Position numbers and translations under genes: made by a program. DNA of 32,000 nt from Archaeoglobus fulgidus DSM 4304 (GTDB lineage: Archaea; Halobacteriota; Archaeoglobi; Archaeoglobales; Archaeoglobaceae), in NCBI RefSeq assembly GCF_000008665.1, contig NC_000917.1:1950001-1982000 (forward strand), written 5' to 3'. The notes beneath the pieces are model-generated. The model did not search any database. It saw only the letters and a list, made by a program, of their open reading frames with translations, and was not told where the DNA came from. The stretch's first letter is position 1. Each line of letters begins with the position of its first letter. This document shows positions 7,795 through 28,179 of this stretch, in pieces.

Positions 7795-7797
7795 AAT

Positions 7798-10890: not shown

Positions 10891-10974
10891 TGCGGGGGGC
10901 GGGATTCGAACCCGCGGACCCCTTCGGGACAGGGTCTTAAGCCCTGCGCCTTTTCCTGGCTCGGCAACCCCCGC
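10891..10974 (-). tRNA. tRNA-Leu (anticodon UAA)
   Basis: Reverse complement is GCGGGGGTTGCCGAGCCAGGAAAAGGCGCAGGGCTTAAGACCCTGTCCCGAAGGGGTCCGCGGGTTCGAATCCCGCCCCCCGCA. It has a 7-bp acceptor stem, anticodon loop CTTAAGA, a long variable arm and a GTTCGAATC T-loop. No CCA is encoded. A T5 run follows the 3' end. Confidence 0.92.
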
Positions 10975-12892: not shown

Positions 12893-12901
12893 AAATGGGG
12901 C

Positions 12902-13087
12902 ATGGGTAAGACAGGCAGCGTAACGTGGGTGAAGATTAAGAAGAGGAACAGCAACGAGTACAGGCTCGTGCCTACCAAGTGGCAGGACTACAAAAAGCCA
13001 GGACCAAATCAGAAGTACACGTCCGACGGAAAGAAGAGAAGGAGAATTAGAAGGTCACAGAAGTCGATATTAGGAGTGAGGTCCTAA
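12902..13087 (+). CDS. Small, highly basic hypothetical protein (61 aa)
   Basis: GGAGG lies 12 nt upstream. About one third of residues are K/R (KKRRRIRRSQK), and codon usage matches neighbouring genes. I do not recognise a family. Confidence 0.5.
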   Translation: MGKTGSVTWVKIKKRNSNEYRLVPTKWQDYKKPGPNQKYTSDGKKRRRIRRSQKSILGVRS

Positions 13088-13626: not shown

Positions 13627-13668
13627 GCTCCGTCTCGGTTTGGCTAATAAAAATGGTTTCGGGCTTTT

Positions 13669-14574
13669 TCACGACTCCCCACATCTGTCCAGCAGGTAGG
13701 CGTAGAGCATTGGCAGAGCTATAGTTGCGTCGCAGTAAACCGTTACAGCCTTGGCGTCGGGCTTTAGCTTGCACCAGCTTTTAGCCTCTTCAAGCGTTGC
13801 CCCACTCAGCCCGCCCCACTGCGGTGAGTCTGTTGTTATCTGCACCGCGTAGTCAAATCCCTCCGCCAGAAGCATCGCCTGCAGTGTGAAGTTTTTTGGC
13901 ACGCCTCCTCCAACGACAATGACACCCATCTTCCTTTTCTGGAAGCAGAAGTCTATAATTCTGCTGACATCCCTGAAGAAGTCAATCTGAAGGTTTTTTC
14001 GGTAAATCGTCATGTGCAAGCCGGCTATTGAGTCGTGCAGGGTGGGGCAGAAGACTGGAATCTCTCTCTCCGCGGCAATTCTGAGGAACGACCTTTCATC
14101 CGGGATTCTTTTTCCTACCTCCCATAGAAACTCGTAGGTTGTGTAAATCCCATCAAGCCCTTCAATTATGCCTGAAAGAAACTCCTCGACCCTCTCAAAA
14201 GCTTCCTGCCCAACAAAAACGTCGTAAATTCTGTTAATGCTCTCCTCAGCCAGAGCTGTGTCATCGACGTAGCAGCTTCCAATCTCGTGACCGATACCGA
14301 GAGATTCGACTATTTCGTGAACGATGTTGGCTCCAGTGGTTACAAGACTGCTTATAAATCCGTTCTGCATCATCCCGGCCACGATTTTCCTCATCCCGGC
14401 GGGAATCATCGCTCCTGCCAGAGTGAGGAAAACAAACGAGTCGCTTTTAACCATCTCCTCACAGATTTTTGCAGCCTCTCCAAGTCTTCTGGCATTGAAT
14501 GCCGTGCTTCCAAACATATCGAGCAGCTCAGAAACTTTGATTCCGCGCTGTATTTCTGGACTCGTCACTCTCAT
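13669..14574 (-). CDS. dys: Deoxyhypusine synthase
   Basis: LAGAMIPAGMR, TTGANIVHE, VVGGGVPKNF and WGGLSGATLEEAKSWCK, with the lysine retained. Confidence 0.88.
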   Translation of the reverse strand: MRVTSPEIQRGIKVSELLDMFGSTAFNARRLGEAAKICEEMVKSDSFVFLTLAGAMIPAGMRKIVAGMMQNGFISSLVTTGANIVHEIVESLGIGHEIGSCYVDDTALAEESINRIYDVFVGQEAFERVEEFLSGIIEGLDGIYTTYEFLWEVGKRIPDERSFLRIAAEREIPVFCPTLHDSIAGLHMTIYRKNLQIDFFRDVSRIIDFCFQKRKMGVIVVGGGVPKNFTLQAMLLAEGFDYAVQITTDSPQWGGLSGATLEEAKSWCKLKPDAKAVTVYCDATIALPMLYAYLLDRCGES

Positions 14575-14645
14575 GACTCTGCATTGATGTGAGTGTTTAA
14601 ATCTCTTTCAAAAGGCATATATACCATCTCAAAGTCCGACCTTTT

Positions 14646-15353
14646 ATGAAGGTACTTGTAAGCCCCATGAGTGTTGCGGAAGCGATTGAGGCGATCGAGG
14701 GAGGGGCTGACATCATCGATGTGAAGAATCCTGCTGAAGGCTCGCTTGGTGCTAACTTCCCCTGGGTGATTAGGGAAATTTCGGAGCTCGCCAAGAAATA
14801 CGGTAAGGAGATAAGCGCAACAACGGGAGATATGCCGTATAAGCCCGGAACGGCGAGCCTTGCAGCGCTGGGTGCTGCAGTTGCAGGTGCGGATTACATA
14901 AAGGTCGGTCTTTACGGAGTCAAAAACGCTGAAGAAGCTTACGAGATGATGGTTGGCGTTGTGAGAGCTGTTAAGGACTTTGATTCGAGCAAAAAAGTCG
15001 TTGCTGCTGGCTACGGCGACTATTACAGAATTTCGTCAGTATCCCCCCTCGATTTGCCTGAAGCGGTTGCGAAGGCTGGAGCGGACATTGTGATGGTTGA
15101 CACCGCCATAAAGGATGGCACTTCCCTGTTCGATCACATGAAAATCGGAGATATTGAGAGTTTTGTGAAGCTGGCGAGAGATAACGGCCTGATGGTGGCT
15201 CTAGCCGGAAACATAAGCTGGAATCACATTGAGACGCTAAAAGAGCTCTCACCCGACATAATAGGAGTTAGGTCTATAGTTTGCGAGGGAGACAGAAGCT
15301 CGATGATAAAGAGGGAGCTTGTGGTAAAGCTTATGGAAGCGGTGCACGGGTAG
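14646..15353 (+). CDS. mfnB: (5-formylfuran-3-yl)methyl phosphate synthase, MfnB/MJ1099 family (methanofuran biosynthesis)
   Basis: MKVLVSPMSVAEAIEAIEGGADIIDVKNPAEGSLGA and the later IKVGL and VMVDTAIKDG are typical of the DUF556/MfnB TIM barrel. Confidence 0.75.
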   Translation: MKVLVSPMSVAEAIEAIEGGADIIDVKNPAEGSLGANFPWVIREISELAKKYGKEISATTGDMPYKPGTASLAALGAAVAGADYIKVGLYGVKNAEEAYEMMVGVVRAVKDFDSSKKVVAAGYGDYYRISSVSPLDLPEAVAKAGADIVMVDTAIKDGTSLFDHMKIGDIESFVKLARDNGLMVALAGNISWNHIETLKELSPDIIGVRSIVCEGDRSSMIKRELVVKLMEAVHG

Positions 15354-16518
15354 AGCAGAGCTTTAACAGCTCGCTCTCACCCTCCCTCGTTCCTTTTGCA
15401 ATCAGAACATCCCCACTGAAAATCCTTGTGTTGGCAGTTGGCTTTGTTATCCACTCGTTCTTTCTTTTAATCGCCACCACATGCATCCCGGTGTTGCTTT
15501 CGACCCTTGCCTCTCCAAGAGTTTTTCCGTTGAGCGGGGATTCTTCGGATACTGTAATCAATGTCAGCACCTCATCGGTCTCTCTCATTGCCTCCTTGAA
15601 TATCGCGGGAATCTCCATCTTGTCCAGCAGTACCTGAGCGATGTCCCTCGCTGCATCCGCTATAAGCTCGGAGCAGTAGGCTATTTCGACAATGGCCATT
15701 AAAGGCATAAGCTGCTCGTCGTTGAAGTGGCGACTGCACTTGAGCACGCTCTTCTCAATTTCAAACTTGGTGTTGTCGATAACCTCCTCAAGGTATACGA
15801 CTTCCAGCGCAATTTCGTCATTTCCGTAAATCAATGAGGAGTACGCGAGGTCTACCGAAAGCTCGGAGAGGTTCTTCACCTCTATAAGCAGGTCAACGGC
15901 CCTGTCGAGCTCCTCTATTTTGATGTCCGGAGGTTCGGGCGGAGGGGGTATTTGCTTCCCCGCAACTACTTCGTAAAATCTCGGTAGAGCTGCCGGGTCG
16001 CCCTTTGCAAAGAGCAAATCGCCCTTGTAAACCATCGTGTCCCTGTCGGGATTGAAAATCCAGCTGAACCCGCGCTTTATCGCAATCACCCTCATTCCCG
16101 TTCTGGTGTGGAGCCTAACTTCACCAAGAGTTTTTCCTGCAATCTCTGAATTTTCGGGAACCTCAAGCTTTACGACCGTCTCCTCGGAATGGTAGAGCAT
16201 CAGCTTGACCATCTCGTCCGAGAGTCTGATGTTTCTCAGGACAAGCGAGGAAATGTCTGCTGCTGCGCTGCTTATCTTCTGCCCCGCGTTGGCTATCTGC
16301 AGGATTGATGAAACCTTCTCCGCCTCCTCCACCCTTCTTGCAGCGAGGATTGAAACGACTCTTATCTGCTTGAGCAAATCGAGAACCCTTCCTTCCAGCT
16401 CCAGAACCTCTTCAGCAATATCCTCATTGTTGTAAAGAATTGCGGAATAGGCAAGGTCAACCATCAGCTCGGTAGTATCTTTAATTTCAACGAGCAGATC
16501 CTTTACGGTACGAGGCAT
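15331..16518 (-). CDS. Tandem PhoU-like plus TrkA-C (RCK_C) domain protein, COG3273-like
   Basis: Two repeated halves are visible. ELMVDLAYSAILYNNEDIAEEV pairs with ELSVDLAYSSLIYGNDEIALEV. GKTLGEVRLHTRTGMRVIAIKR pairs with GKTLGEARVESNTGMHVVAIKR. Confidence 0.7.
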   Translation of the reverse strand: MPRTVKDLLVEIKDTTELMVDLAYSAILYNNEDIAEEVLELEGRVLDLLKQIRVVSILAARRVEEAEKVSSILQIANAGQKISSAAADISSLVLRNIRLSDEMVKLMLYHSEETVVKLEVPENSEIAGKTLGEVRLHTRTGMRVIAIKRGFSWIFNPDRDTMVYKGDLLFAKGDPAALPRFYEVVAGKQIPPPPEPPDIKIEELDRAVDLLIEVKNLSELSVDLAYSSLIYGNDEIALEVVYLEEVIDNTKFEIEKSVLKCSRHFNDEQLMPLMAIVEIAYCSELIADAARDIAQVLLDKMEIPAIFKEAMRETDEVLTLITVSEESPLNGKTLGEARVESNTGMHVVAIKRKNEWITKPTANTRIFSGDVLIAKGTREGESELLKLCSTRAPLP

Positions 16519-16546
16519 TTCAATTTTCTCTATTTCTCATCATATA

Positions 16547-16912
16547 TTAATCTTTTTCAACCACTTCCAGCTCCACTTCCTCGCCCTTTCTGTTGTAGCA
16601 CTTCCAGCTGTTCTCGTCGTAGGGATAGCAGACTATGATGTGGTACTTGCCAAAGCGGGTGAAGAGGGACAAGTCTTCCTCCGATGGCCTGCAGCTCGGC
16701 GAGGGGTGGCTGTGAACAGTCCCGAAAACCTTCATGCCGATGGGTAGCATGTCGAGGTGAATAACTGCAGACACCGAGCCCGAAACGAAGGGAAGGAAAA
16801 TGAGCTCATCCATTACATCCTTGCTTCCGCTCAGCAGAGCTATGAACTCATCTGGGTGAGCGCTCTTCGCAGCTTCCAGAATTGTTTTGAGCAATCCTCT
16901 GGAGATCTTCAC
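16547..16912 (-). CDS. JAB1/MPN/JAMM metalloprotease (AfJAMM-like)
   Basis: JAMM motif HSHPSPSCRPSEED (HxHP-x6-S-x2-D) with an upstream Glu. The sequence matches my recollection of A. fulgidus AF2198. It has a 4-nt ATGA overlap with the upstream gene. Confidence 0.85.
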   Translation of the reverse strand: MKISRGLLKTILEAAKSAHPDEFIALLSGSKDVMDELIFLPFVSGSVSAVIHLDMLPIGMKVFGTVHSHPSPSCRPSEEDLSLFTRFGKYHIIVCYPYDENSWKCYNRKGEEVELEVVEKD

Positions 16913-18159
16913 AGGAACTCCCTCGGGTCTGCTATGTATCCCTTAACAGCACTTGCTGCAGCTGTAGCTGGTGAGGCAAGGAAAATTTCCGCGTTCGGAT
17001 TGCCCATTCTGCCCTTGAAGTTTCTGTTTTGAGTGGAGATGCAAACCTCGCCATCAGCCAGAATTCCCTGATGGATTCCCACACACGGCCCGCAGCCGGG
17101 GTTGAGAACCATTCCTCCAGCCTCAACGAAAACTCTTATCAGCCCCTTATCGAGGGCCTGCAGATAGACTCTCCTGCTTGCAGGGACAACAATCAGCCTA
17201 ACACCCTCCTTAACCTTCCTGCCCTTCAGGATTCTTGCAGCAACCTCTAAGTCAGAAAGCCTGCCGTTTGTGCATGTTCCGATGTAAACCTGATTTACCT
17301 CCGTGCCCTCAACCTCGCTAATCTCTGCAACATTGTCAACGTTGTGGGGCTTTGAGACAACCGGAACGAGGGAGGAAACGTCCATGTAAATCTCCTTTTC
17401 ATACTCTGCATCCTCATCCGCCTTTACCTCTCTGAAATCCCCCTCCCTCCCAAGCTCGGCGAGGAATTTCCTCGTGTTCTCATCGCTCTCGAAAATTCCC
17501 GCTTTGGCTCCGCACTCTACCGCCATATTGGCTATTGTGAGCCTCTCCTCCACAGTCATGTTCTCAGCACACTCCCCGTGGAACTCAAGGGCCTTGTAGG
17601 TTGCTCCGTCAACACCAAGATCACCTATGAGCTTCAGTATCACATCCTTGGCGAAAACTCCTTTGGGGAGAGAGCCGTCAAGCTGAACTCTGAAGCTCTC
17701 AGGAACTCTGAACCAGTTCTTGCCGAGTGCGATGGCAACTGCAACATCAGTAGAACCCATTCCCGTGGAGAAAGCTCCAATTCCTCCGTAGGTGCATGTG
17801 TGGCTGTCAGCCCCAACGGCCAAATCTCCGGGCTTGACGTACCGCTCTACCATAATCTGGTGGATTATCCCCTCTCCGGGCGGGTTGAAGTCCGCCCCAA
17901 CCTTTTTTGCAAACTCGTAGATGAACTTCTGGTCGTTGCTCAGCTCCCTTCTTGGCGAGGGAGCGGCGTGGTCAACGAAAAAGTGTGTCCTGTCTGCTGC
18001 TCTAACCTCCGTTCCGAGCTCCATCAGCTGCCTTATTGCCAGAGGAGCCGTGCCGTCCTGCAGGGCTATCTGGTCAATCTCGGCAACAACAATGTCACCG
18101 GCGTAAGCGTCACTCTTCGATTTTTCGCTGAGTATTTTTTCTGCAATAGTTTTGCCCAT
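16909..18159 (-). CDS. leuC: Aconitase-family dehydratase large subunit (3-isopropylmalate or homoaconitate dehydratase, LeuC/HacA)
   Basis: DSHTCTYG, IGTCTNGRLSD and NPGCGPCVG cluster-ligand motifs. No small subunit is adjacent. Confidence 0.88.
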   Translation of the reverse strand: MGKTIAEKILSEKSKSDAYAGDIVVAEIDQIALQDGTAPLAIRQLMELGTEVRAADRTHFFVDHAAPSPRRELSNDQKFIYEFAKKVGADFNPPGEGIIHQIMVERYVKPGDLAVGADSHTCTYGGIGAFSTGMGSTDVAVAIALGKNWFRVPESFRVQLDGSLPKGVFAKDVILKLIGDLGVDGATYKALEFHGECAENMTVEERLTIANMAVECGAKAGIFESDENTRKFLAELGREGDFREVKADEDAEYEKEIYMDVSSLVPVVSKPHNVDNVAEISEVEGTEVNQVYIGTCTNGRLSDLEVAARILKGRKVKEGVRLIVVPASRRVYLQALDKGLIRVFVEAGGMVLNPGCGPCVGIHQGILADGEVCISTQNRNFKGRMGNPNAEIFLASPATAAASAVKGYIADPREFL

Positions 18160-18241
18160 ACTGCAAGTTAGTTCGGTGCTTTTTAAGTTAACCGTTTGTT
18201 TCTTAGAAAAGCCTTAAATACTTTTTTAATGAACTCTCAAA

Positions 18242-18781
18242 GTGTTGGTTAAGAGGCTTGGAGAGCTGCTGGACAAAAAAGTCTCTAAAAAGACGGATGC
18301 CGCCGTGGTGGTTCCGGTTTTTGATGAGAAGTGCCCGAAAATTGTGATGATAAAGCGCTCGAAGGGTTTGAACAGGAGCGCGGGTCACATAGCCTTTCCC
18401 GGTGGGATGATTGAGGATGGCGAGAACGAGGTTGAAGCAGCTTTGAGAGAGTTTGAGGAGGAGCTTGGAATAAATCCCGAATGTGTTGATGTTCTAGGAT
18501 TTTTAAGGCCGCGGGAGGTTCACGAGTACAGGATAATGATTTGCCCCGTTGTGGGGATGATAAGGACGCTCGATTTCGTACCTGATGGGAGAGAGGTGAG
18601 CAGAGTTCTGGTCGATGAACTCAGAAAGGTTCTCAAGTCGAGAAGAATCACGGACTGGGGGCCGAACTTCGAGTGTGCAGGGCAGCTCGTTTGGGGAGCG
18701 TCGAGCAGAGTTCTGGACGACCTTTATTTGAGGATCGTTAGGCGATACGGCTCTGTTGATGCGTTTTTTGAGGGGATTTAG
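18242..18781 (+). CDS. NUDIX hydrolase, CoA-pyrophosphatase-like
   Basis: Nudix box GGMIEDGENEVEAALREFEEELGI. GTG start. Confidence 0.8.
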   Translation: MLVKRLGELLDKKVSKKTDAAVVVPVFDEKCPKIVMIKRSKGLNRSAGHIAFPGGMIEDGENEVEAALREFEEELGINPECVDVLGFLRPREVHEYRIMICPVVGMIRTLDFVPDGREVSRVLVDELRKVLKSRRITDWGPNFECAGQLVWGASSRVLDDLYLRIVRRYGSVDAFFEGI

Positions 18782-18838
18782 GACTCATTGGTATGTGAAT
18801 CGGGGTAAAGTACTTATTTTTTGATTTCTAATTAGGGC

Positions 18839-19393
18839 ATGCTTCTCAACGAGAAGGATTTCAAAAATGAAGGTGTGAAAATAGCAGCCCTCATCATGGC
18901 TGAATCGGCGAGAACGGCTCCTAAGTCCAAGGGTGAGGACACCATCGAAATCGTTTACGTTGACGGCGAGGAAATGGAGAAAATTGCTGCAAAAATGGAG
19001 GAAATGGCTGAAGGAGGGGATAAGGATTTTATCAGAGATGCTGAAAGCGTAAGAAAATCTCAGGCGATTTTGTTGATAGGGGCCAAGGGGGACAGAACGG
19101 TGGGTGTTAACTGCCAGGCATGCGGCTTTGAAAGCTGCTCCGAATTCAAGAAGGCTGATAGGAAGGGTGAGAACTTTGTGGGGCCTAACTGCGCCTTCAG
19201 AATGATTGACCTCGGCATCGCTCTCGGCTCGGCGGTGAAAGTTTCAGCGATGCTCGGGATTGACACGAGAATCATGTACAGAATTGGAATTGCGGCAAAG
19301 AAGCTTGGAATGATTGATGCGGACGTTGTGATGGGCGTTCCGCTGTCAGCACTGGGCAAGAGCCCCTACTTCGACAGAGCGCCCAAAAAATAA
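18839..19393 (+). CDS. DUF2148/COG4739-like protein with a ferredoxin-type domain
   Basis: VNCQACGFESCSEF and GPNCAFRMIDLGIALGSA resemble this family as I remember it. Confidence 0.55.
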   Translation: MLLNEKDFKNEGVKIAALIMAESARTAPKSKGEDTIEIVYVDGEEMEKIAAKMEEMAEGGDKDFIRDAESVRKSQAILLIGAKGDRTVGVNCQACGFESCSEFKKADRKGENFVGPNCAFRMIDLGIALGSAVKVSAMLGIDTRIMYRIGIAAKKLGMIDADVVMGVPLSALGKSPYFDRAPKK

Positions 19394-19397
19394 TTTT

Positions 19398-20084
19398 TCA
19401 AAACTTATCTGGAATTCCAGCATTGTAGAAAAGTCTCAGTGCCATTAACGCGACAATGAGCAGATGCACCAAAGTAAGAGCTTTGACCCCCTTGGTTGGA
19501 AATCGTGTTAGCATTGGCTCCTTTGAGATGATAAGAGTCATTAGCGGCATAATGGACATAGTGAGGAGTGGTAACAGGACTGCTCCTGTAAACTTGTCAG
19601 TGTAGCTGTCGGGTCGTCCGGTTATGTCGAAGTGTGTGGCAATAGATTTGGGCAAGTTATTCCAGAGGGCAAGAAGGAGAATAAGATACGCAGCTAACGA
19701 AATCAGCTGGATTAAAAGATGTCGCTCGACTTTTACAGGCTCAAGCTGTTTTTTGGCCTTTGCAGGCATTCGCAGGTCCTCCTTTTCATAGGCTTCCTTG
19801 CCCACTCTGTAGCTTAGAAATGCTACTGCAACGATTATAATTAGGAATACAATAAGAAAAACTTGATCGGGGAGGTTTAGCAGCATGTTCATTGCAATAA
19901 GCACCAATCCTGCCATAACGCAGAATATGCCAGCAAAGGTGTTTGCTTTTCTCCACGCTTCTTTTGAAAGGTAGGTGTATCCCATTCTTACTCCGACATA
20001 CGGATTAGGTCTGTTTCTGAGAGCATAGGTGAGCAGCCCTATAATTATCAGCAAAAAGGACAGAAAAGTTTTCAAATCTTCCAT
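19398..20084 (-). CDS. Polytopic membrane protein with SdpI-like and DUF1648-like halves
   Basis: PYVGVRMGYTYLSKEAWRKANTFAG resembles the SdpI motif. LPKSIATHFDITGRPDSY resembles DUF1648. Six or more hydrophobic spans. It overlaps the upstream PadR gene by 13 nt. Confidence 0.6.
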   Translation of the reverse strand: MEDLKTFLSFLLIIIGLLTYALRNRPNPYVGVRMGYTYLSKEAWRKANTFAGIFCVMAGLVLIAMNMLLNLPDQVFLIVFLIIIVAVAFLSYRVGKEAYEKEDLRMPAKAKKQLEPVKVERHLLIQLISLAAYLILLLALWNNLPKSIATHFDITGRPDSYTDKFTGAVLLPLLTMSIMPLMTLIISKEPMLTRFPTKGVKALTLVHLLIVALMALRLFYNAGIPDKF

Positions 20085-20431
20085 TCTTTCACCTCCTCTA
20101 CTTTCTCAATTACGTTTCTTAAAATGCTAATTTCTCTTCTTAAATCCTTCAGAACAACTTTTCCGAGTTCTGTTAGTCTGTAGCATTTCCTTGGTCTCGT
20201 ATCCTCAACCCAGAAGCTCTCCACAAGACCCTGCTTTTGCAGACGCTTCAGAAGGTCGTACAGTGCACCCTCGGAGGGGACGAATTCTCCAGAACTCAGG
20301 TTTTCGAAAGATTTTCTTATGGCGTATCCGTGCATTTCACCGTTTTCCAGAATGTTCAGGACTGCATAGGAGTAGATACCCGACCTTATTTCTTTTCTTA
20401 GCCTCTTCAACACCTTTTCCCTGTTTCCCAT
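20072..20431 (-). CDS. PadR-family transcriptional regulator
   Basis: YAVLNILENGEMHGYAIRKSF...SEGALYDLLKRLQKQGLVESFW. The ATG at 20431 is preferred over the track GTG at 20440. Confidence 0.85.
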   Translation of the reverse strand: MGNREKVLKRLRKEIRSGIYSYAVLNILENGEMHGYAIRKSFENLSSGEFVPSEGALYDLLKRLQKQGLVESFWVEDTRPRKCYRLTELGKVVLKDLRREISILRNVIEKVEEVKEWKI

Positions 20432-20442
20432 AAACACCACTA

Positions 20443-20460
20443 ACTACGATACATCGTAGT
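20443..20460. promoter_or_regulatory. Perfect 8-2-8 palindrome ACTACGAT-AC-ATCGTAGT, candidate PadR operator
   Basis: Read directly from the sequence. It lies between a TATA-like ACATATAC (minus strand, about 20466-20473) and the padR start. Confidence 0.45.
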
Positions 20461-20480
20461 AAGTAGTATATGTAACTTTC

Positions 20481-20501
20481 GTATAACAATTGTATAACAA
20501 T
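20481..20501. repeat. Direct repeat GTATAACAAT x2 separated by one base
   Basis: 20481-20490 and 20492-20501 are identical. The repeat sits just upstream of the T-rich box at 20507-20515. Confidence 0.6.
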
Positions 20502-20538
20502 CCTAACTTTTTTAGAGCTCCTCACACCTGTATTTTTC

Positions 20539-20619
20539 ATGCAGGCATACCGCTACGAGTGCAAAGCTGAGGGAGGGCTGACGCATTACGTTGCTCTGGA
20601 TGAGGAAACACCCTTTTAA
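20539..20619 (+). CDS. Unannotated 26-aa ORF MQAYRYECKAEGGLTHYVALDEETPF, candidate precursor peptide
   Basis: ATG 20539 to TAA 20617-20619, ending 15 nt before the radical SAM start. A T-rich TATA-like box is centred about 28 nt upstream, which fits a leaderless transcript. The evidence is positional only. Confidence 0.3.
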   Translation: MQAYRYECKAEGGLTHYVALDEETPF

Positions 20620-20634
20620 TTTTTTGGTGGGACT

Positions 20635-21873
20635 ATGCTGAAAGAATTGGAGGTAAATGGTAAAAGGTTTTTCTTGGCTCCCGAATCCAACTTTTGGGCC
20701 ATAGGTGAGAGAGAGGAGGTGGAGAGGTTCTACAGAGAAAGAAAGGATGCTCTTCTGGAGGAAATGCAGAGATACCGATTTGAGGTTGACATCAGGACTG
20801 CTTACATCAACCCTACCGAGAGCTGCAACAGAAACTGTCCGTACTGCTACATCCCTGCCGAAATCAGAGAAAGGGGGACAAAGATGAGCTACGAAAAGCT
20901 TGAAGAGATCCTCACGGTGCTTGCCGAAAATGGTGTGGAGAGAGTCATTTTTCACGGAGCGGAGCCCTTAATGGTAAAGGATGAAATCTTCAGAGCAATG
21001 GAGGATTTCGATTTCAAGTACGGCATCCAGACTAACGCAACGCTGCTGGAGGAAGAAGACGCTGAGCTTCTCATGAAGAAGGGGGCAAGCGTTGGAATTT
21101 CCCTCGACAGCCCATACAAGGAGACGAACGATTATCTGAGGGGAAAGGGGCATTACGATGCTGTTATGAGGGCTCTCGACTTCTTTGATGGTTATAGGAG
21201 CTTAAATATTATAATGACGGTTAACAAGCACAACTTCCAGCATCTGCCTGCAATGGTTGACTTTCTCGCCGGAAAAGTTAGTGTGATGCTCGCAAATCCT
21301 GTAAGAGGGACAAGTCCGGGTGGAAGGGAGTTGAGACCGCCGGAAGGATTCGAAGATTACTACATCAAAGCCATTGATAGGGCGATCGAGAACACGAAGA
21401 GCGGTAGGAGGATAGTTATCGGCGATTTTGCCAACATTCTCCTCGGGCTGGTCGCACCCACGTCCAGAGTTCTGCAGTGCGACATTTCTCCCTGCGGCGG
21501 CGGGAGAAGGTTTTTCGCAGTAAGTGCGGACGGCATATACCCCTGCGGGGAGTTCATCGGTATGGAAGAGTTCAGAGCAAATCTTTCGGCCCTATCCGAC
21601 TGGAGCAGCTTGATTGAGAAGTTTGAGGTAGTCAGAAAGAGGACCGTTGAGCAAATTGAGGAGTGCAGGAATTGTGAGTTCAGAAATCTCTGCGGAGCCC
21701 CCTGTCCGGCGGAAATTTACGCCGAAAGTGGAACAATGCTCAGGAAAAGCCCATACTGTGAGTTCTACAAAAAACTTGCCCTGAAGGCCATGGACGTCAT
21801 AGCGAGGGGTGATGTAAGGAACGTTCTGAAGCTTGAAAGGATGAAGGCTATCTACAGGGTTGAAGATTTTTAA
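20635..21873 (+). CDS. Radical SAM enzyme with a C-terminal SPASM-type auxiliary-cluster domain (peptide/protein maturase class)
   Basis: CNRNCPYCY (CxxxCxxC) after an N-terminal extension of about 60 aa. C-terminal cysteines are CDISPCGGG, YPCGEF, CRNCEFRNLCGAPCPAE and PYCEF. Confidence 0.85.
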   Translation: MLKELEVNGKRFFLAPESNFWAIGEREEVERFYRERKDALLEEMQRYRFEVDIRTAYINPTESCNRNCPYCYIPAEIRERGTKMSYEKLEEILTVLAENGVERVIFHGAEPLMVKDEIFRAMEDFDFKYGIQTNATLLEEEDAELLMKKGASVGISLDSPYKETNDYLRGKGHYDAVMRALDFFDGYRSLNIIMTVNKHNFQHLPAMVDFLAGKVSVMLANPVRGTSPGGRELRPPEGFEDYYIKAIDRAIENTKSGRRIVIGDFANILLGLVAPTSRVLQCDISPCGGGRRFFAVSADGIYPCGEFIGMEEFRANLSALSDWSSLIEKFEVVRKRTVEQIEECRNCEFRNLCGAPCPAEIYAESGTMLRKSPYCEFYKKLALKAMDVIARGDVRNVLKLERMKAIYRVEDF

Positions 21874-21910
21874 GCGTTAAATTTTTAACTGAAAATAATC
21901 AAAATTTTTT

Positions 21911-23437
21911 GTGAGGAAAAGGTATGCTGCCCTGGCAATTGTCCTTGCGCTGATTTTGTCTCTGGCCCTACCAGAACTGCTTTTCCAGCTCTATCCCTCT
22001 TCTGCTGTACTTAATGTGGATAAGCTCTTAAATCCCCCACCTGAGAACCCAAATCCCTTCGCTGCGGAGCCTCCAGCCAACAAATACCTCGATTCGGTGT
22101 GGGCTGAGAGCCACAGAAACAGCTACTGTCAGGCAAGCTCCCCATTCGAAGCTCCAAGGTTTCCGGAAAAGCTGAGATTTGAGTACCTCACCCTCCGCGA
22201 TCTCCCCATAACAATAGCGTTCTCCGAGCCCTACGAAGACGGCAAGAGGGTTGCGTGGGTCTCAACAGTTGGCTTTACCGGCAAGATAGCCAAGATAGAC
22301 CTCGAAAACTTCAGCTTGATAGATGAAATCACTCCTGAAGGGCACAGAATGGGCATAAGCGGCGCCTATAGCGTTCTCGCGAATCGCACCTTCTTCGTTC
22401 CAAAGCTGAACAGGATATACGCTTACGGTGATAACGGCAGACTTTCCAGAATCGAGCTGAAGGGTGTCTTTGAGCTACCTGAAGTGTGCAGCGGAGAGGA
22501 GATAGTTGGAATAACGCTTACCTACGACGGAATGATAGCCTTTGCAACGAACTTCGGCAGGGTTGGTGTAGTATCGCCCAACTTTGGCGATTACGCCCTT
22601 TACCCAATAAACCAAAACTGCGAGATTGCCGAGACGATTTCCAACTCCATAGCCGCAGATGAGAGCGGTGGGATATACGTCGTGACAGATAAGGCGGTGT
22701 ACAGAATAAACTGGGACGGCAAGAGTTTGAGACTCGGCTGGAGGGCCGAATACCAGACTGGGGAGCAGAGGGGAGGGAGGCTCGGAAAGGGCTCCGGCTC
22801 CACCCCATCGCTTATGAACTGCGGCGAGGACAGGTTTGTGGTTATAACAGATGGACAGAGGCTCATGCACATGGTTCTTTTCTGGAGGGATGAGATTCCA
22901 GAAGACTGGAAAGGGATTGAGGGAAGAGACAGGAGGATTGCTGCTGAAGTCCCCGTAACATTCGGCTTTGAGAAGGATGAGAGCTACTCCGAGCAGTCGG
23001 TGCTTGTTAGAAACTGCTCTGCAGCGATAACAAACAACAGGCTTGGCTTGAGGTTGCTCGACCTCCTGCCAGAAAGGCTTCAACCATTCTCTATGCTCCT
23101 CTCTAACGTCCCAGGAATCGCTCCTTACGGAGTTGAGAAGTTCGAGTGGGATGCTGAGAAAAGAGCACTCAGAAGCGTGTGGGCGAGCAACGTGAGCATT
23201 CCAAACGCCATACCGACAATGAGTGACAAAACGAATCTCCTCTACGCCATAGGCCAGAGAGGTGGATTCTGGACTCTCGAAGCTGTGAACTGGGAAAGCG
23301 GTGAGGCTGTGTGGTATGCGCGAATCTCTCCCCTCCCTGCTCACAACAGCTTTTACGCTGCAACTGAAATCGGCCCGGATGGCTGCATCTATACGGGCAT
23401 GCTCTGGGGTGTGGCGAGGCTCTGCAACGCGGATTAA
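21911..23437 (+). CDS. Secreted or membrane-anchored hypothetical protein with beta-propeller-like repeats (508 aa)
   Basis: GTG start. N-terminus MRKRYAALAIVLALILSLALP is hydrophobic. Recurrent blade-like segments include GGIYVVTDKAVYRINWDGKSLRLGW, NLLYAIGQRGGFWTLEAVNWESGEAVWY and DGCIYTGMLWGVARL. Confidence 0.7.
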   Translation: MRKRYAALAIVLALILSLALPELLFQLYPSSAVLNVDKLLNPPPENPNPFAAEPPANKYLDSVWAESHRNSYCQASSPFEAPRFPEKLRFEYLTLRDLPITIAFSEPYEDGKRVAWVSTVGFTGKIAKIDLENFSLIDEITPEGHRMGISGAYSVLANRTFFVPKLNRIYAYGDNGRLSRIELKGVFELPEVCSGEEIVGITLTYDGMIAFATNFGRVGVVSPNFGDYALYPINQNCEIAETISNSIAADESGGIYVVTDKAVYRINWDGKSLRLGWRAEYQTGEQRGGRLGKGSGSTPSLMNCGEDRFVVITDGQRLMHMVLFWRDEIPEDWKGIEGRDRRIAAEVPVTFGFEKDESYSEQSVLVRNCSAAITNNRLGLRLLDLLPERLQPFSMLLSNVPGIAPYGVEKFEWDAEKRALRSVWASNVSIPNAIPTMSDKTNLLYAIGQRGGFWTLEAVNWESGEAVWYARISPLPAHNSFYAATEIGPDGCIYTGMLWGVARLCNAD

Positions 23438-23480
23438 GTGGAAAAAAGGTTAATAAGTCCCTAACACTCAATTATATACC

Positions 23481-23927
23481 GTGAAGGTCGCACTTGGTGG
23501 AACCTTCGAGCCGTTGCACGAGGGGCACAAAAAGCTGATTGACGTGGCGATAAAGCTTGGAGGAAGGGACATAACCATAGGCGTTACCAGCGACAGAATG
23601 GCGAGAGCGAGAATCAGGAGCGTCCTACCCTTTGCCATAAGAGCGGAGAACGTGAAAAGGTACGTCATGAGAAAATACGGGTTCGAGCCGGAAATTGTTA
23701 AGATAACCAACCCCTACGGAAAAACGCTCGATGTTGACTTCGAGTACCTCGTTGTATCGCCAGAAACCTACGAGATGGCTTTGAAGATTAACCAGAAGAG
23801 GGAAGAGCTCGGAAAGAGAAAGATAACCATAGTAAAGGTTGACTGGATGATGGCAGAAGACGGGAAGCCCATTTCTTCAACAAGAATAAAGAGGGGCGAG
23901 ATAGACAGGTACGGCGGGATTATCTAA
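23481..23927 (+). CDS. coaD: Archaeal phosphopantetheine adenylyltransferase (cytidylyltransferase fold)
   Basis: GGTFEPLHEGHKKL (HxGH) and ISSTRIKRGE. GTG start. Confidence 0.85.
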   Translation: MKVALGGTFEPLHEGHKKLIDVAIKLGGRDITIGVTSDRMARARIRSVLPFAIRAENVKRYVMRKYGFEPEIVKITNPYGKTLDVDFEYLVVSPETYEMALKINQKREELGKRKITIVKVDWMMAEDGKPISSTRIKRGEIDRYGGII

Positions 23928-23929
23928 GC

Positions 23930-24260
23930 TGAGGTTTCCAGAAGGAAAAGCTCGTCGAGCGTGTTAAGGAAAAGGGCTTCGTAAAGCTCAGGCTGCATTT
24001 CCAGTACAACTTTCCCCCTAGTGAGCACATAATGTCTAAACTTGGCTGGCAGAAGGATACAACATCAACGGGGAGAGAAAGCTCATCCTCAAGCCTCACT
24101 CCGAGCCTTAGATAGAATTTGAGGCTTTTGTTTGTTGAGTAACGTGATAATGTTGTATCTCACCGCAAGCCTTTCAACCTTGCTCATGCTTTCAAAATCC
24201 TTTGAAGTTATCTCTCTGATGGACTCAATGGAGTCGTAAATGTTCCTTTATCAGCCTCTT
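23930..24260 (-). pseudogene. Decayed ORF remnant, MNT-type nucleotidyltransferase-like
   Basis: Three minus-strand frame segments read NIYDSIESIREITSKDFESMSKVERLAVRYNIITL.., ..LRLGVRLEDELSLPVDVVSF.. and ..AKFRHYVLTRGKVVLEMQPELYEALFLNTLDELF. Stops and frame changes separate them, and the catalytic GS/DxD region seems to be missing. Confidence 0.35.
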
Positions 24261-24373
24261 AACGAAATTCCGGTTTATTACAAAGTTAAATCACTTCAAT
24301 CTTTAAAAATTTTCCAGCTTGCAAAAATAAAAAGATTTAAATCGCTTCTACCAAACAAAAAGCAGGTGATAGT

Positions 24374-25267
24374 ATGAAAGTGAATGGTGTTGAGGTTGAG
24401 GAGACTTTTGCTGAGGCCTTCGATATAAAAATTGCGAGGGTTTTGATAACGGGCTACGACTATTACTGGGCCTGGGTTGCTGCCAACGAGGCTACGGGGT
24501 TTGGCACCTCGGTAATTATGTGCCCTGCCGAGGCTGGAATCGAGATTAAGGCCAAGCCCTCAGAAACTCCCGATGGGAGGCCGGGATACTACATCCAGAT
24601 CTGCCACATGAGCAAGAAGGGGCTTGAGGAGCAGCTTCTGGCCAGACTCGGCCAGTGTGTGCTTACGGCTCCAACTACGGCAGTGTTTAACGGTTTGCCA
24701 GACGCTGAAGAGAAGTTCGACACCGGCTTCAAGCTGAAGTTCTTCGCCGATGGCTACGAGAAGGAAGTTGAGGTTGGAGGAAGGAAGTGCTGGGCCGTGC
24801 CAATGATGGAAGGAGACTTCATAATCGAGAACGACATCGGCTACACAAACGGAATTGCTGGAGGAAACTTCTTCATTATGGCCGAAACGCAGCCATCAGC
24901 CCTTGCTGCCGCAAAAGCTGCTGTTGATGCGATTAGCGACGTTGAGGGCGTAATCACTCCGTTCCCTGGTGGAATCGTCGCCTCTGGCTCGAAGGTTGGG
25001 GCCAACAAGTACAAGTTCCTGAAAGCATCAACCAATGAGAAATTCGCTCCGAGCATCAGAGACCAGGTCGAGGGAACGCAGATTCCTGAGGGAGTTAAGG
25101 CGGTTTACGAGATTGTCATCAACGGTCTCAACGCTGATGCAATAAAGGAGGCCACGAGAGTCGGAATACTCGCTGCTACAAAGATTCCGGGAGTCGTGAA
25201 GATTACTGCCGGCAATTACGGTGGGAAGCTCGGAAAGCACATCATAAACCTGAACGAGCTCTTCTAA
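24374..25267 (+). CDS. ftr: Formylmethanofuran:tetrahydromethanopterin N-formyltransferase
   Basis: MKVNGVEVEETFAEAFDIKIARVLITG...ATGFGTSVIMCPAEAGIE is typical Ftr. GGTGA Shine-Dalgarno at 24364-24368. TATA-like boxes at 24301-24313 and 24334-24343. Confidence 0.9.
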   Translation: MKVNGVEVEETFAEAFDIKIARVLITGYDYYWAWVAANEATGFGTSVIMCPAEAGIEIKAKPSETPDGRPGYYIQICHMSKKGLEEQLLARLGQCVLTAPTTAVFNGLPDAEEKFDTGFKLKFFADGYEKEVEVGGRKCWAVPMMEGDFIIENDIGYTNGIAGGNFFIMAETQPSALAAAKAAVDAISDVEGVITPFPGGIVASGSKVGANKYKFLKASTNEKFAPSIRDQVEGTQIPEGVKAVYEIVINGLNADAIKEATRVGILAATKIPGVVKITAGNYGGKLGKHIINLNELF

Positions 25268-25279
25268 ATTTTTATTTTT

Positions 25280-26011
25280 ATGAAAACTATTCTAACAATC
25301 TCTGGCCTCGACCCGTCTGGTGGGGCTGGTGTTAGCGCCGACATAAAGACTGCTAAGGCAATTGGCCTTTATCCCGCTTCAGTAATCACTTCTCTGACCG
25401 TTCAGAACACATGTGGTGTAAAGGCGGCTATTCCCGTGGAGGCGGAGGTTATCAGGGAACAGCTCAGAGCGGTCATTGAGGATATGAAAATCGACTGCAT
25501 CAAAATCGGCCTGATCACATCTGTCGAGATTGCTAAGGTTTTGGCTGCTGAGCTTGTTCCTCTTAACGCCCCCAAGGTACTCGACCCCGTAATTTTTGCC
25601 GGTGCGGGCGGTAAAATAGGCGATGAGGAAGCTTACAAAATGATCCTGAAGCATGTTGATATCGTCACACCAAACCTAACGGAAGCCATAACGCTGCTGG
25701 AATCAACCAAGGAGGCAAGAGAGCTCGCTCTGGAAATGAACAAAAAGTATGGCTGCGATGTCGTGATTACCGGTGGAGAGCTTGGGGGAAAGGATGTTGT
25801 CTGCGAGGCGGGCAGAACATACACCGTCTCAGCAGAATTCTCACCCGTAAACATCCACGGCACGGGCTGCGTTTACAGCACCGCCCTCGCCTGCTATCTC
25901 GGCTTGGGAAATTCGCTGGAAAATGCTGTCAGAAAGGCAAGAATTTTTGTTCTTGAGAGTGTAAAAAAGGCTTTGAGGCCAGGAAGCTGTTTCCCTGTCG
26001 TCAATCCTTAG
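25280..26011 (+). CDS. thiD: Hydroxymethylpyrimidine/phosphomethylpyrimidine kinase
   Basis: ILTISGLDPSGGAGVSADIKT, TVQNT and HGTGCVYSTALA. Confidence 0.88.
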   Translation: MKTILTISGLDPSGGAGVSADIKTAKAIGLYPASVITSLTVQNTCGVKAAIPVEAEVIREQLRAVIEDMKIDCIKIGLITSVEIAKVLAAELVPLNAPKVLDPVIFAGAGGKIGDEEAYKMILKHVDIVTPNLTEAITLLESTKEARELALEMNKKYGCDVVITGGELGGKDVVCEAGRTYTVSAEFSPVNIHGTGCVYSTALACYLGLGNSLENAVRKARIFVLESVKKALRPGSCFPVVNP

Positions 26012-26772
26012 AACAAGATCCTCTCTAAGTCGTCCCCTCCGTAGAAGATTTCCTGAATTGCATCGTATATGTCCTCCATTCCGTAGCCCGTAAGCGCTGA
26101 TGCCGGAATGAGCGGTCTGAACAGCCCAGCTTCCTTCAGCAGGAGAAAGAGCTCAAGGTTCAGCGTTTTCCGCTCCAGATTAAGGCTATCGTAGAGGGTT
26201 TCAGGGTCCTCGCTCCATTCCACAATCCTCTCAAGCTCCCTCTCCGAAAGAATATCCGATTTAGACAGAACGAGCACCTGCGGTATTTCAAGCCTGAATA
26301 CGGCCGAAGACGCCATGAACAGCATTGAGAGAAATCCGGATGGTGTTTTGGACACAACGGGGTCGAAAAGATAGACCATAACGCTTCTTTCGGGGTTGAG
26401 AGCGTTTACGAGTACTCTGCTGCTCTCCCTGAGCGTGAAAAGCTCCAGCTGGCCGGGAGTATCTATCAGAACGTATTCTGACGAGGAGAGCTGAATTTCA
26501 TCTCTAATGTCATCGATAAGGGTTGACACGAGGTCTGCTCCAATTATCTGCGCTCCGTTAGGCCCAACGTTGTACCTCCCCATGATATCCTCAAGCGTGA
26601 ACCACTCCCTGACGTCGATGTCTGCAGAGTACGGGAGGAAGTCCGCGCCGGGGTCGAGGTTTACGGTCAGGTAATCCAGCTTCTTCAGGTCAAACCAGTC
26701 TGCAAGAGCCTTCGTCATGTAGGTTTTTCCAGAACCAGCTGTGCCGGTGAAGTATACGAAAATCTGCTCCAT
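26008..26772 (-). CDS. GPN-loop GTPase (Npa3/XAB1/PAB0955 family)
   Basis: Walker A GTAGSGKT, GPN loop NVGPNGA, and DTPGQLE. Confidence 0.88.
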   Translation of the reverse strand: MEQIFVYFTGTAGSGKTYMTKALADWFDLKKLDYLTVNLDPGADFLPYSADIDVREWFTLEDIMGRYNVGPNGAQIIGADLVSTLIDDIRDEIQLSSSEYVLIDTPGQLELFTLRESSRVLVNALNPERSVMVYLFDPVVSKTPSGFLSMLFMASSAVFRLEIPQVLVLSKSDILSERELERIVEWSEDPETLYDSLNLERKTLNLELFLLLKEAGLFRPLIPASALTGYGMEDIYDAIQEIFYGGDDLERILF

Positions 26773-26779
26773 GAAAAAA

Positions 26780-27028
26780 CTAAGGGTTGGGGTTCAAAAC
26801 CTCTACTCTGTACTTGGTTTTCAGCCCCTGAACGTATCTTTTGGCATCCACAACAAAGGGGCAGTAACTCGGACAGCCTGCCCCCTTAACCCCCTGAATG
26901 CGGCAGTTTGTGCTGTTAGTGCAGTCAACAACCTCTATCTTGCTTTCGTTAACGTAGATGACTGCGGTGTGTCTCCTGTTTTTCACCTGGAGGATCGTGC
27001 TTTCGACAGTAACCATCATTTTAATCAT
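26780..27028 (-). CDS. Small cysteine-containing hypothetical protein (82 aa)
   Basis: Four Cys in VDCTNSTNCRIQGVKGAGCPSYCP. Its stop lies 7 nt upstream of the GPN GTPase start on the same strand. No family recognised. Confidence 0.5.
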   Translation of the reverse strand: MIKMMVTVESTILQVKNRRHTAVIYVNESKIEVVDCTNSTNCRIQGVKGAGCPSYCPFVVDAKRYVQGLKTKYRVEVLNPNP

Positions 27029-27081
27029 GTCTAATTACCGCATAAAAAGTTTTCCATTTTTCGTATTCTACGTAAAAAAGT

Positions 27082-27564
27082 TCAGTGTTTATGAAACGCG
27101 GGGTATAACTTGTCATAGGTCTCCTCCAAGGCCTCTGGAATGACCTGCACGTCCGCCAAGACAGGCATGAAGGACGTATCGCCATTCCACCTCGGCACGA
27201 CGTGAATGTGGAGGTGGGCGGCAATTCCAGCCCCTGCAACCTTGCCTATGTTCACCCCCACATTGAAGCCATCAGGGTTCATTACTTCCCTTATTGCCTT
27301 CAGCGAGAGCCTGACGAGCTTCATGGCCTCCACAATCTCCTCTTCCGTCATGTCTTCGATGGATGGAATGTGGCGGTAGGGATTGACCATCACGTGACCG
27401 GGATTGTAGGGATTTCGGTTCATTATGACGTAGCAGGTTTTGCCCCTGTAGAGTATCAGGTTCTCCCTGTCTCTGTTCTCCTTAGGAGCGGTGCAGAAAA
27501 CGCATTCTTTCGGCTTTGGAGCGAGAACGTATCTTATTCTCCAAGGAGCAAAAATTCTCTCCAT
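27082..27564 (-). CDS. HIT-family nucleotide hydrolase/transferase
   Basis: Histidine triad AAHLHIHVVPR and an N-terminal CVFC. Confidence 0.85.
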   Translation of the reverse strand: MERIFAPWRIRYVLAPKPKECVFCTAPKENRDRENLILYRGKTCYVIMNRNPYNPGHVMVNPYRHIPSIEDMTEEEIVEAMKLVRLSLKAIREVMNPDGFNVGVNIGKVAGAGIAAHLHIHVVPRWNGDTSFMPVLADVQVIPEALEETYDKLYPAFHKH

Positions 27565-27607
27565 GACGGTAATATTTTCTGAGGTATAAATATTTTGTTT
27601 GGTCGCA

Positions 27608-27790
27608 CACTAGGAACATGTCCCCATTACCAAAACCAATCTAAAAAAAATATGTATTCGGTAAAGGATATTGTTAAGGAGCTTAAAGTCTTTGAGATGT
27701 ACCTCTCGAAATTAAAGGGAATATCAACCTACATTCAAAAGAAAACTTTAATTACAGGATTTCAGAGACTGTAAACAAACTGCTAGACTT
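27608..27790 (+). mobile_element. IS6-family-like element, 5' fragment (copy A)
   Basis: Terminal GGAACATGTCCCC at 27613-27625. 27664-27697 is 33/34 identical to 29153-29186. A residual 40-codon ORF at 27652-27774 reads MYSVKDIVKELKVFEMYLSKLKGISTYIQ.., parallel to copy B. Confidence 0.55.
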
Positions 27791-27837
27791 TTTTAGGACT
27801 GGAAAAACGGCAGAATTAAGGATTTTAAGGATAGAAA

Positions 27838-27911
27838 TGCCCGGACCCGGATTTGAACCGGGGACTATGCGGTCTTCAGCCGCACGCTCTCCCTGGCTGA
27901 GCTACCCGGGC
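27838..27911 (-). tRNA. tRNA-Phe (anticodon GAA)
   Basis: Reverse complement is GCCCGGGTAGCTCAGCCAGGGAGAGCGTGCGGCTGAAGACCGCATAGTCCCCGGTTCAAATCCGGGTCCGGGCA. It has a 7-bp acceptor stem (one G-U pair), anticodon loop CTGAAGA and a GTTCAAATC T-loop. No CCA is encoded. Confidence 0.92.
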
Positions 27912-27992
27912 TTAACCTATTGTATCCCATTAGTATTTTAATCTTTTTGGTTGGGTTTGCTCGTATGGCATCCCAATTATTTTTACATCTCT

Positions 27993-28179
27993 TCAATCTG
28001 GAGGAAGCTTGCACCAGAACGCATTGCAGAGTTCATCCCACTCCAAACTTATATGAGGCTTAATCTCGTTATGCCACCTTACAACTGCTTCAACTGAGCC
28101 AAGCTTTTCACTTTCTCTCAACCTTTACGTTAGTTTCCTCACATGAAGTGGGTCTAGGGTTGTGAAATAATTTTGGATA
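27993..28179 (-). pseudogene. Remnant of an rve (retroviral-integrase-type DDE) transposase/integrase C-terminus
   Basis: Two minus-strand frames read YPKLFHNPRPTSCEETNVKVERK (compare P-x-TNGKVER) and SEKLGSVEAVVRWHNEIKPHISLEWDELCNAFWCKLPPD* (compare wYN-x2-RPH-x-SL). Stops are present and no N-terminal catalytic part remains. Confidence 0.5.

Follow-up and report, generated by a model that had tools for sequence, protein, structure and literature searches.

The DNA examined here is a 32-kb stretch of Archaeoglobus fulgidus (the window), and the subject is a group of five adjacent genes that lie divergently around a 194-nt region containing a palindrome and a repeat. To the right of this region are cbpA, encoding a 26-residue peptide, cbpB, encoding an enzyme of the radical S-adenosylmethionine (SAM) type with a SPASM region, and AF_2205, encoding a predicted beta-propeller. 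To the left are a PadR regulator gene and a gene for a membrane protein with an SdpI domain. The initial annotation of this locus proposed that all five belong to one undescribed system for making a ribosomally synthesized peptide with post-translational modifications (RiPP). The open reading frames (ORFs), motifs, palindrome and repeat that it described are all found where it had placed them. However, the five genes are probably three separate units, adjacent by chance in A. fulgidus: the cbpA-cbpB pair, AF_2205, and a padR-sdpI/DUF1648 pair. The features of the locus are as follows (loci used for comparison are numbered from L001 upward).

19398-20084, minus strand: SdpI/DUF1648 membrane protein, 228 aa (ORF list and Pfam)
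20072-20440, minus strand: PadR regulator, 122 aa, overlapping the membrane protein gene by 13 nt (ORF list and Pfam)
20539-20619, plus strand: cbpA, 26 codons (ORF list and TIGR04164)
20635-21873, plus strand: cbpB (AF_2204), radical SAM/SPASM enzyme, 412 aa (ORF list and TIGR04163)
21874-21910, plus strand: spacer between cbpB and AF_2205, 37 nt (sequence reading)
21911-23437, plus strand: AF_2205, predicted propeller, 508 aa, GTG start (ORF list and predicted structure)
19404-20473, no strand: strain-variable segment of 1070 bp with padR, sdpI and the palindrome (blastn against L018)
20443-20460, no strand: perfect 8-2-8 palindrome (sequence search)
20481-20517, plus strand: putative cbpA promoter region (from the repeat and a TATA-like stretch)

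The cbpA-cbpB pair

The peptide encoded by cbpA, which ends 15 nt before cbpB starts, is MQAYRYECKAEGGLTHYVALDEETPF. It is 26 aa long, is essentially without a leader and has invariant Cys8 and G13-L-T-H-Y17. Its score of 59.8 bits against TIGR04164 (cobo_pep; cut-off 35, E=1.3e-16) makes it a member of that family, and it is identical to RefSeq WP_081423283.1, 'modified peptide precursor CbpA'. When cbpA is compared with the 79%-identical L001 locus, 7 of 7 differences in the 66 coding nt compared fall at third codon positions and leave the peptide unchanged. Because of the family match and these synonymous-only changes, the 26-codon ORF is judged to be a genuine gene under purifying selection, not a chance ORF. 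A competing 26-aa ORF at 20490-20570 has no family match in a profile search.

Among 71 distinct peptide cores, the invariant part is one Cys followed 4-7 residues on by G-L-(S/T)-H-(Y/F), and the window core, C-x4-G-L-T-H-Y, agrees with this. The core Cys is usually preceded by (S/A)-(Y/F)-(R/H)-x-x. Archaeal CbpA has almost no leader and ends in -SPF or -TPF; bacterial CbpA is Lys-rich at its N-terminus and in its tail. The GG before LTHY was considered as a double-glycine leader cleavage site and rejected. The residue before the conserved G varies (G/A/N/T/V), cleavage there would leave the invariant Cys on the 'leader' side, and the neighbourhood has no C39 peptidase. The sulfatase C/S-x-P/A-x-R motif is not in CbpA.

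How widely is the pair kept? CbpB loci came from species-representative genomes (14) and from metagenomes (80), giving 94, or 95 with the window. Of the 95, 88 have a CbpA-like ORF (C-x4-7-G-L-S/T-H-Y/F) upstream of CbpB. The initial annotation had suggested looking for exactly such a small ORF beside orthologous radical SAM genes, and its claim that the ORF encodes a precursor-type peptide with the enzyme as dedicated partner is borne out. The other seven loci comprise five with too little upstream sequence, one with a motif split by a frameshift and one (L098) that is unexplained. The frameshift, in L028 (about 116-260), may be an assembly error or may mark a pseudogene. In L098 the CbpB homologue (758-2043) has an unusual N-terminal region and no detectable cbpA upstream.

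CbpB (AF_2204) scores 623.1 bits against TIGR04163 (rSAM_cobopep; cut-off 375, E 2.1e-187), with profile positions 1-428 covered, and is RefSeq WP_010879693.1, 'peptide-modifying radical SAM enzyme CbpB'. Both genes are above curated equivalog cut-offs and RefSeq names the identical proteins CbpA and CbpB, so the word 'undescribed' in the initial annotation has to go. In other words, the pair is already curated and named in NCBIfam and RefSeq, as a family defined bioinformatically only. Pfam Radical_SAM matches residues 58-211 with 92 bits. The cysteines C64-x3-C68-x2-C71 and C282, C287, C304, C344, C347, C353, C357 and C375, 11 in all, are invariant in 39-42 homologues. Thus the enzyme does have the CxxxCxxC motif and the Cys-rich SPASM C-terminus expected of it, with three plus eight invariant cysteines. 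The eight include C-x2-C-x5-C-x3-C (C344/C347/C353/C357) and make a full set for two auxiliary clusters. The Pfam SPASM model matches CbpB homologues, though not the window CbpB itself.

Which characterised enzymes are closest? After TIGR04163, the next NCBIfam matches are the uncharacterised peptide-modifying TIGR04083 and then the thioether-forming PapB and StsB, with anSME, DynA and others close behind. The initial annotation raised the prospect that the enzyme would cluster with anSME or with AhbC/D-type enzymes. It is an orthologue of neither, nor of NirJ (60-87 bits against cut-offs of 349-650). The anSME model TIGR03942 gives 87 bits for a cut-off of 349, and AhbD (77.4 bits), AhbC (65.3), NirJ1 (60.2) and NirJ2 (64) stay far below cut-offs of 500-650. 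An AlphaFold2 (AF2) model of CbpB with a mean predicted local distance difference test score (pLDDT) of 94 is nearest to CteB among solved structures (TM 0.70-0.72), followed by anSME (TM 0.67), ChlB, TigE and SuiB. The family profile gives the same order against the PDB (CteB E 2.8e-34, anSME E 1.6e-25). No PqqE chain is among the solved-structure matches.

The initial annotation also suggested that the N-terminal extension is a RiPP recognition element (RRE), which is not supported. The extension exists: about 57 residues, with conserved P16, F20, W21 and R48, precede the radical SAM core. However, the AF2 model places in it strands 3-7, 10-15 and 20-23 and a single long helix, 26-49, whereas a canonical RRE has a three-stranded sheet and three helices in some 85-100 aa, and the CbpB element is too small for this. 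The PqqD Pfam model finds no match on CbpB at E<=0.01. The N-terminal domain of CteB, which we take to be an RRE, has no sequence alignment to CbpB either; the alignment begins at CbpB 53 and CteB 95. Judging from the model, the small element might nevertheless bind the peptide by strand addition.

The propeller gene and the padR-sdpI segment

AF_2205 is O28078, a 'hypothetical protein' with near-identical cluster mates labelled 'YncE family protein'. Its AF2 model, built on a 39-sequence alignment (pLDDT 91, predicted TM score 0.90), has an N-terminal hydrophobic helix (2-27) and then some 32 strands within residues 87-506, which would make roughly eight blades when read from the strand list. 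The model agrees with the claim of a 508-aa exported propeller-like protein; AF_2205 is probably an exported or membrane-anchored beta-propeller. A Foldseek search of the PDB returned 1308 propeller matches at E<=0.001, including 8-bladed PQQ (pyrroloquinoline quinone) dehydrogenases, BamB, tetrathionate hydrolase, YxaL, Rv3035 and WD40 proteins, at 9-16% identity and TM 0.46-0.56. This similarity is generic, in that BamB, tetrathionate hydrolase and WD40 proteins match as well as PQQ-type proteins do. AF_2205 has no Pfam or NCBIfam match other than propeller repeats below threshold, and a profile search of the PDB gave no relative. Its family comprises 924 cluster-50 representatives at E<=1e-3. 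Across 39 sequences, 51 positions are invariant, some of them in an R290-x-G-x-G-S-G-x-T-P loop. Bacterial homologues are 45-50% identical, and this level of identity between archaeal and actinobacterial members suggests horizontal spread of the family.

The link between AF_2205 and cbpAB is limited to the A. fulgidus cluster. The propeller is not found by tblastn in any of the 94 other CbpB loci, and the claim that it is the partner of the radical SAM enzyme is thus left without support. Conversely, no radical SAM gene lies beside propeller homologues in the five archaeal and bacterial contexts examined besides L018, which is a near-identical copy of the window locus. The closest archaeal homologues (78-81% identical) are instead directly downstream of methylmalonyl-CoA mutase genes, again with no radical SAM gene nearby. 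The mutase large subunit gene is directly upstream of the homologue in L016 (4286-5932) and L017 (3962-5607), and in the window it is at 30403-31956 on the minus strand, 7 kb from AF_2205. AF_2205 therefore appears to be unrelated to cbpAB, its position reflecting local Archaeoglobus synteny near the mutase genes. Also, T-runs are present in the spacer at 21874-21910, as is a TATA-like TTAAATTTTTAA (21877-21888) some 25 nt ahead of the GTG start; judging from its sequence, the spacer could serve as a terminator and a separate promoter for a leaderless transcript. What speaks for a closer tie is that cbpB and AF_2205 are on the same strand, only 37 nt apart, and that they are also neighbours in close A. 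fulgidus relatives; co-transcription in A. fulgidus is possible.

What if a CbpA-derived product were the cofactor of the adjacent propeller, in the manner of PQQ? This was the second reading offered by the initial annotation. PqqA and PqqE are likewise a small peptide and a SPASM radical SAM enzyme, and PQQ-dependent dehydrogenases are among the best structural matches of the propeller. However, those matches are of the generic kind described above, the propeller and CbpB families do not co-localise outside A. fulgidus in the loci examined, and the nearest solved relatives of CbpB are CteB and anSME, not PqqE. Neither co-occurrence nor specific kinship to PQQ dehydrogenases was found, and a PQQ-like system is extremely unlikely. 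The part of the second reading that survives is the general idea of a peptide-derived factor as opposed to a toxin; the link goes to cobamide operons (see below), not to the propeller.

The leftward genes are a separate matter. The PadR protein scores 87.3 bits against PF03551 (gathering threshold 27, E=7e-25). The membrane protein has SdpI at residues 25-92 (46.8 bits) and DUF1648 at residues 130-175 (54.6 bits) and is 100% identical to 'SdpI family protein [Archaeoglobus fulgidus]'. Its homologues (40-52% identical) occur in three independent contexts, including Geoglobus acetivorans (L019, L020/L021, L022), each with a PadR gene directly upstream and overlapping, and with no radical SAM gene nearby. 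Moreover, the two genes are dispensable to the arrangement on their right. The blastn comparison with L018 gives 99.83% identity over 12853-19403 of the window and 99.59% over 20474-28050, and in L018 only 12 bp (6552-6563) replace window 19404-20473. That locus lacks padR, sdpI and the palindrome and keeps the DUF2148 gene, cbpA, cbpB, AF_2205, the downstream genes, the GTATAACAAT repeat and the putative cbpA promoter region. There are no convincing target-site duplications or terminal repeats at the ends of the indel, and a transposon-like insertion of padR-sdpI was considered and rejected. Since the genes are missing in L018 and recur elsewhere without a radical SAM gene, the part that the initial annotation had given them, regulation of cbpAB and immunity, is not supported. 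As for SdpI-type immunity, the SdpI domain is present, the partner is a PadR protein, and no peptide gene occurs in L019-L022. The padR-sdpI/DUF1648 genes are probably a self-contained, autoregulated two-gene operon that is present or absent between close strains.

The palindrome and the 10-bp direct repeat of the initial annotation are both real and unexpected by chance. The palindrome, ACTACGAT-AC-ATCGTAGT, is 3 nt upstream of the padR start and occurs just once in the window, where chance would give 0; its extended arms span 20436-20467. The padR homologue of L019 has a different palindrome, of 11-4-11, at the equivalent position. On these sequence grounds the window palindrome is likely to be a PadR autoregulatory operator. 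The repeat is an exact tandem copy of GTATAACAAT at 20481-20490 and 20492-20501. After it comes the T/A-rich, TATA-like TTTTTTAGA, some 22-26 nt ahead of the ATG of cbpA, and a TATA-like box is at the same distance from cbpA in seven Archaeoglobi loci, which suggests a leaderless cbpA mRNA. Just upstream of the box is a motif, GTATnACA..GTAnTACAA, found in the window (20481-20501), L002 (about 5810-5835) and L006 (about 5800-5825). The window copy contains the palindrome ACAATTGT. The motif may be a candidate binding site for a regulator. It is not evidently a PadR site, because it persists where padR is absent.

It is now possible to weigh the reading of all five genes as one RiPP cassette, with precursor, maturase, exported propeller partner, PadR as the regulator and an SdpI-like protein for immunity, producing a toxin-like peptide. 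The arguments for it are those of position: all five genes are adjacent, divergent around the region with the palindrome and repeat, the gap between cbpB and AF_2205 is short, and the SdpI domain is real. However, PadR and SdpI homologues, like the propeller, are found in none of the 94 other CbpB loci, L018 keeps three genes without the other two, padR-sdpI recurs alone, the propeller has five contexts without a radical SAM gene, and an exporter or protease is not present. The initial annotation had itself named orthologous loci without the propeller, and five genes that are not co-conserved, as observations that would tell against it. This is what was found, at 0/94 loci. A five-gene cassette is very improbable.

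The locus is flanked by two coenzyme A metabolism genes, one NUDIX CoA pyrophosphatase-like (18242-18781) and one for pantetheine-phosphate adenylyltransferase (23481-23927). Without the padR segment, a DUF2148 ferredoxin-domain gene (18839-19393) is the neighbour of cbpA. The other CbpB loci have none of these three genes nearby. Two long antisense ORFs, 22475-23344 on the minus strand (289 aa, within AF_2205) and 20512-20955 on the minus strand (147 aa, spanning cbpA/cbpB), are probably shadows of the genes on the sense strand and do not code.

Cobamide operons and a possible role for CbpA

If the window neighbours say little about the function of the pair, the neighbours in other genomes say more. 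Among the 14 genome loci, all-vs-all BLAST and Pfam counts of 137 neighbours revealed no conserved neighbour beyond lineage synteny, examples being eRF1-domain or deaminase genes that are each common to two loci. A conserved protease, exporter or immunity gene was not found around the CbpB loci. The metagenome loci are more informative. In 74 of them, the 150 genes nearest to CbpB most often have the Pfam families ABC_tran (10), CobT and CbiD (9 each), CbiB, CobQ/CobB and TP_methylase (corrin methylases; 7 each), and then CobO (6), CobU and CbiQ (5 each) and CobC-type phosphatase (4). Overall, cob genes are within the flanks of 31 of the 94 CbpB loci. Three gene orders illustrate the embedding: riboswitch-CobC-CobU-CobT-CobS-CbpA-CbpB-CbiB-CobD, riboswitch-channel-CbiM-N-Q-O-CbpA-CbpB-CobO-methylases, and riboswitch-BtuF-...-CobC-CobU-CbpA-CbpB-CobT-CobS-CobQ. 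In L013, cbpB and cbiB overlap start to stop by 4 nt. A cobalamin riboswitch heads the operon in five of the eight bacterial loci tested: L013 (2550-2752), L061, L080 (1854-2026), L085 and L096.

Given this embedding in bacterial cobalamin and cobalt-transport operons with B12 riboswitches, the pair most likely has to do with cobamide or cobalt handling and not with antibiosis. The family name points the same way, 'cobopep' probably being short for cobalamin-operon peptide. A more specific proposal is that CbpA, as modified by CbpB, is a hitherto unrecognised accessory factor of anaerobic cobamide metabolism in bacteria, where B12 riboswitches would control it, and in archaea. Its invariant Cys and His could make it a peptide or chaperone that binds cobalt or corrinoids, or it could give rise to a peptide-derived ligand; the pair would be a stand-alone module in Archaeoglobi. 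Archaeoglobi rely on corrinoid enzymes. This proposal is tentative and less likely than not, and several observations weigh against a cobamide link in archaea. The archaeal loci are outside cob operons, save for L031 with CobT 27 nt downstream. No cob genes were found in the 32-kb window by tblastn with bacterial Cob proteins, a search that divergent archaeal forms could escape. The cobamide link of archaeal cbpAB is thus extrapolated from bacteria. No publications on the chemistry or function of CbpA and CbpB were found in the literature searched, and a candidate paper (PMC10878394) makes no mention of CbpB. No riboswitch was seen in the window, where Rfam at gathering thresholds gave only two tRNA genes, at 10891-10974 and 27838-27911, both on the minus strand.

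Perhaps the cob location in bacteria is incidental, or serves B12-responsive regulation only, and cbpAB is a minimal two-gene cluster for a secreted or antimicrobial RiPP. The closest characterised enzymes are, after all, sactipeptide and ranthipeptide maturases, and in L014 a 558-aa ABC-transporter gene (7398-9074; ABC_tran at residues 321-470) is directly downstream of cbpB. That locus is from a metagenome-assembled genome of a member of the Thermodesulfobacteriota and has a peptide subtype, SYRRRC...GTGLSHYILL, that is outside a cob operon and might be exported. On the other hand, there is no leader in Archaeoglobi and, as noted, no conserved protease, exporter or immunity gene. Those ABC genes of cob-embedded loci that were directly identified are both of the importer type, that of L061 being CbiO of the CbiMNQO cobalt transporter and that of L080 a BtuF-associated ABC ATPase. 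The location within riboswitch-controlled cob operons, down to the overlap of cbpB with cbiB, is also difficult to square with a chance position. A secreted product is unlikely.

Alternatively, CbpB could act on a corrinoid or tetrapyrrole intermediate like AhbC, AhbD and NirJ, with CbpA as an accessory or carrier subunit. The cob-operon context would suit this, and the AhbD, AhbC and NirJ models do match CbpB, at E 1e-17 to 1e-21. However, these matches amount to 60-77 bits, far below the family cut-offs, and are weaker than those to peptide maturases. Furthermore, cbpB and the peptide gene are strictly coupled, the Cys/His core of the peptide is invariant, and the best structural match is CteB. 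A small-molecule substrate is therefore quite unlikely, and the reading preferred here remains that CbpA itself is modified.

What might CbpB do to CbpA? In a self-contained two-gene module, CbpA would be the substrate of CbpB. After SAM cleavage CbpB would most likely take a hydrogen atom from the peptide and then install one intramolecular cross-link within the C-x4-7-G-L-S/T-H-Y/F core. The best guess is a thioether from the invariant Cys, which would close a macrocycle of 8-11 residues, and the product would probably stay in the cell. A single Cys-derived cross-link is favoured because there is one invariant Cys and because the nearest characterised relatives include thioether-forming maturases. 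Since leader, protease and exporter are lacking, a product that stays inside the cell is more plausible than a secreted toxin. Three considerations temper this scheme. With no literature found on the chemistry, the type of cross-link is a guess. In the anSME structure, eight SPASM cysteines ligate both auxiliary clusters fully; by analogy the eight invariant cysteines of CbpB could do the same, which would leave no open Aux-I site for a substrate Cys, as used by CteB, and weakens the thioether guess. Lastly, the acceptor residue is not fixed, because Tyr and Phe alternate after the His and Ser and Thr alternate before it. A C-C link, a C-N link and Cys oxidation are possible alternatives to a thioether.

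The idea of a new archaeal five-gene peptide system does not hold, and its core pair was already curated. What remains of value is a conserved radical SAM enzyme and peptide pair. Many anaerobic bacteria have it within cobalamin and cobalt-transport operons under B12-riboswitch control, and Archaeoglobi and other archaea have kept it too. If the pair does act in cobamide synthesis or cobalt handling, a ribosomal-peptide component would be added to a well-studied pathway. In addition, attention is drawn to AF_2205, whose exported propeller family is large and well conserved and has no Pfam or NCBIfam model.

Relation to known systems

The Bacillus SdpABC/SdpRI system and the window have the Pfam SdpI domain of the membrane protein in common. 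However, the window regulator is a PadR protein whereas SdpR is an ArsR-type regulator, and the window membrane protein has an extra DUF1648 half. The padR-sdpI genes also occur elsewhere without a peptide or radical SAM gene and are dispensable to a near-identical strain.

The likeness to PqqA/PqqE and the propeller dehydrogenases consists of a peptide and a SPASM radical SAM enzyme beside a propeller-fold protein. The difference is that the propeller and cbpAB are not co-conserved, that the likeness in fold is of a generic kind with 9-13% identity, and that PqqB, PqqC and PqqD genes are not present.

A closer parallel is CteB/CteA, the SCIFF thioether maturase and its peptide (PDB 5wgg, 5why). 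Like CbpB, CteB combines a radical SAM domain with a full SPASM domain and is paired with a small Cys-containing peptide. Nevertheless, the two enzymes are only about 19% identical, with about 95 residues before the aligned radical SAM core in CteB and about 57 in CbpB, and TIGR03974 gives CbpB 67.7 bits for a cut-off of 425. CteA has six cysteines, whereas CbpA has one, and no leader. The anSME enzymes (PDB 4k36-4k39) resemble CbpB in having a SPASM fold with eight cysteines for two auxiliary clusters and no large RRE, but they act on a sulfatase, whereas the partner of CbpB is a dedicated 26-aa peptide. Closest of all are TIGR04163 and TIGR04164 themselves. The window pair belongs to these two families, has the same order of a small ORF and then a radical SAM gene, and shows no difference from them at the family level.

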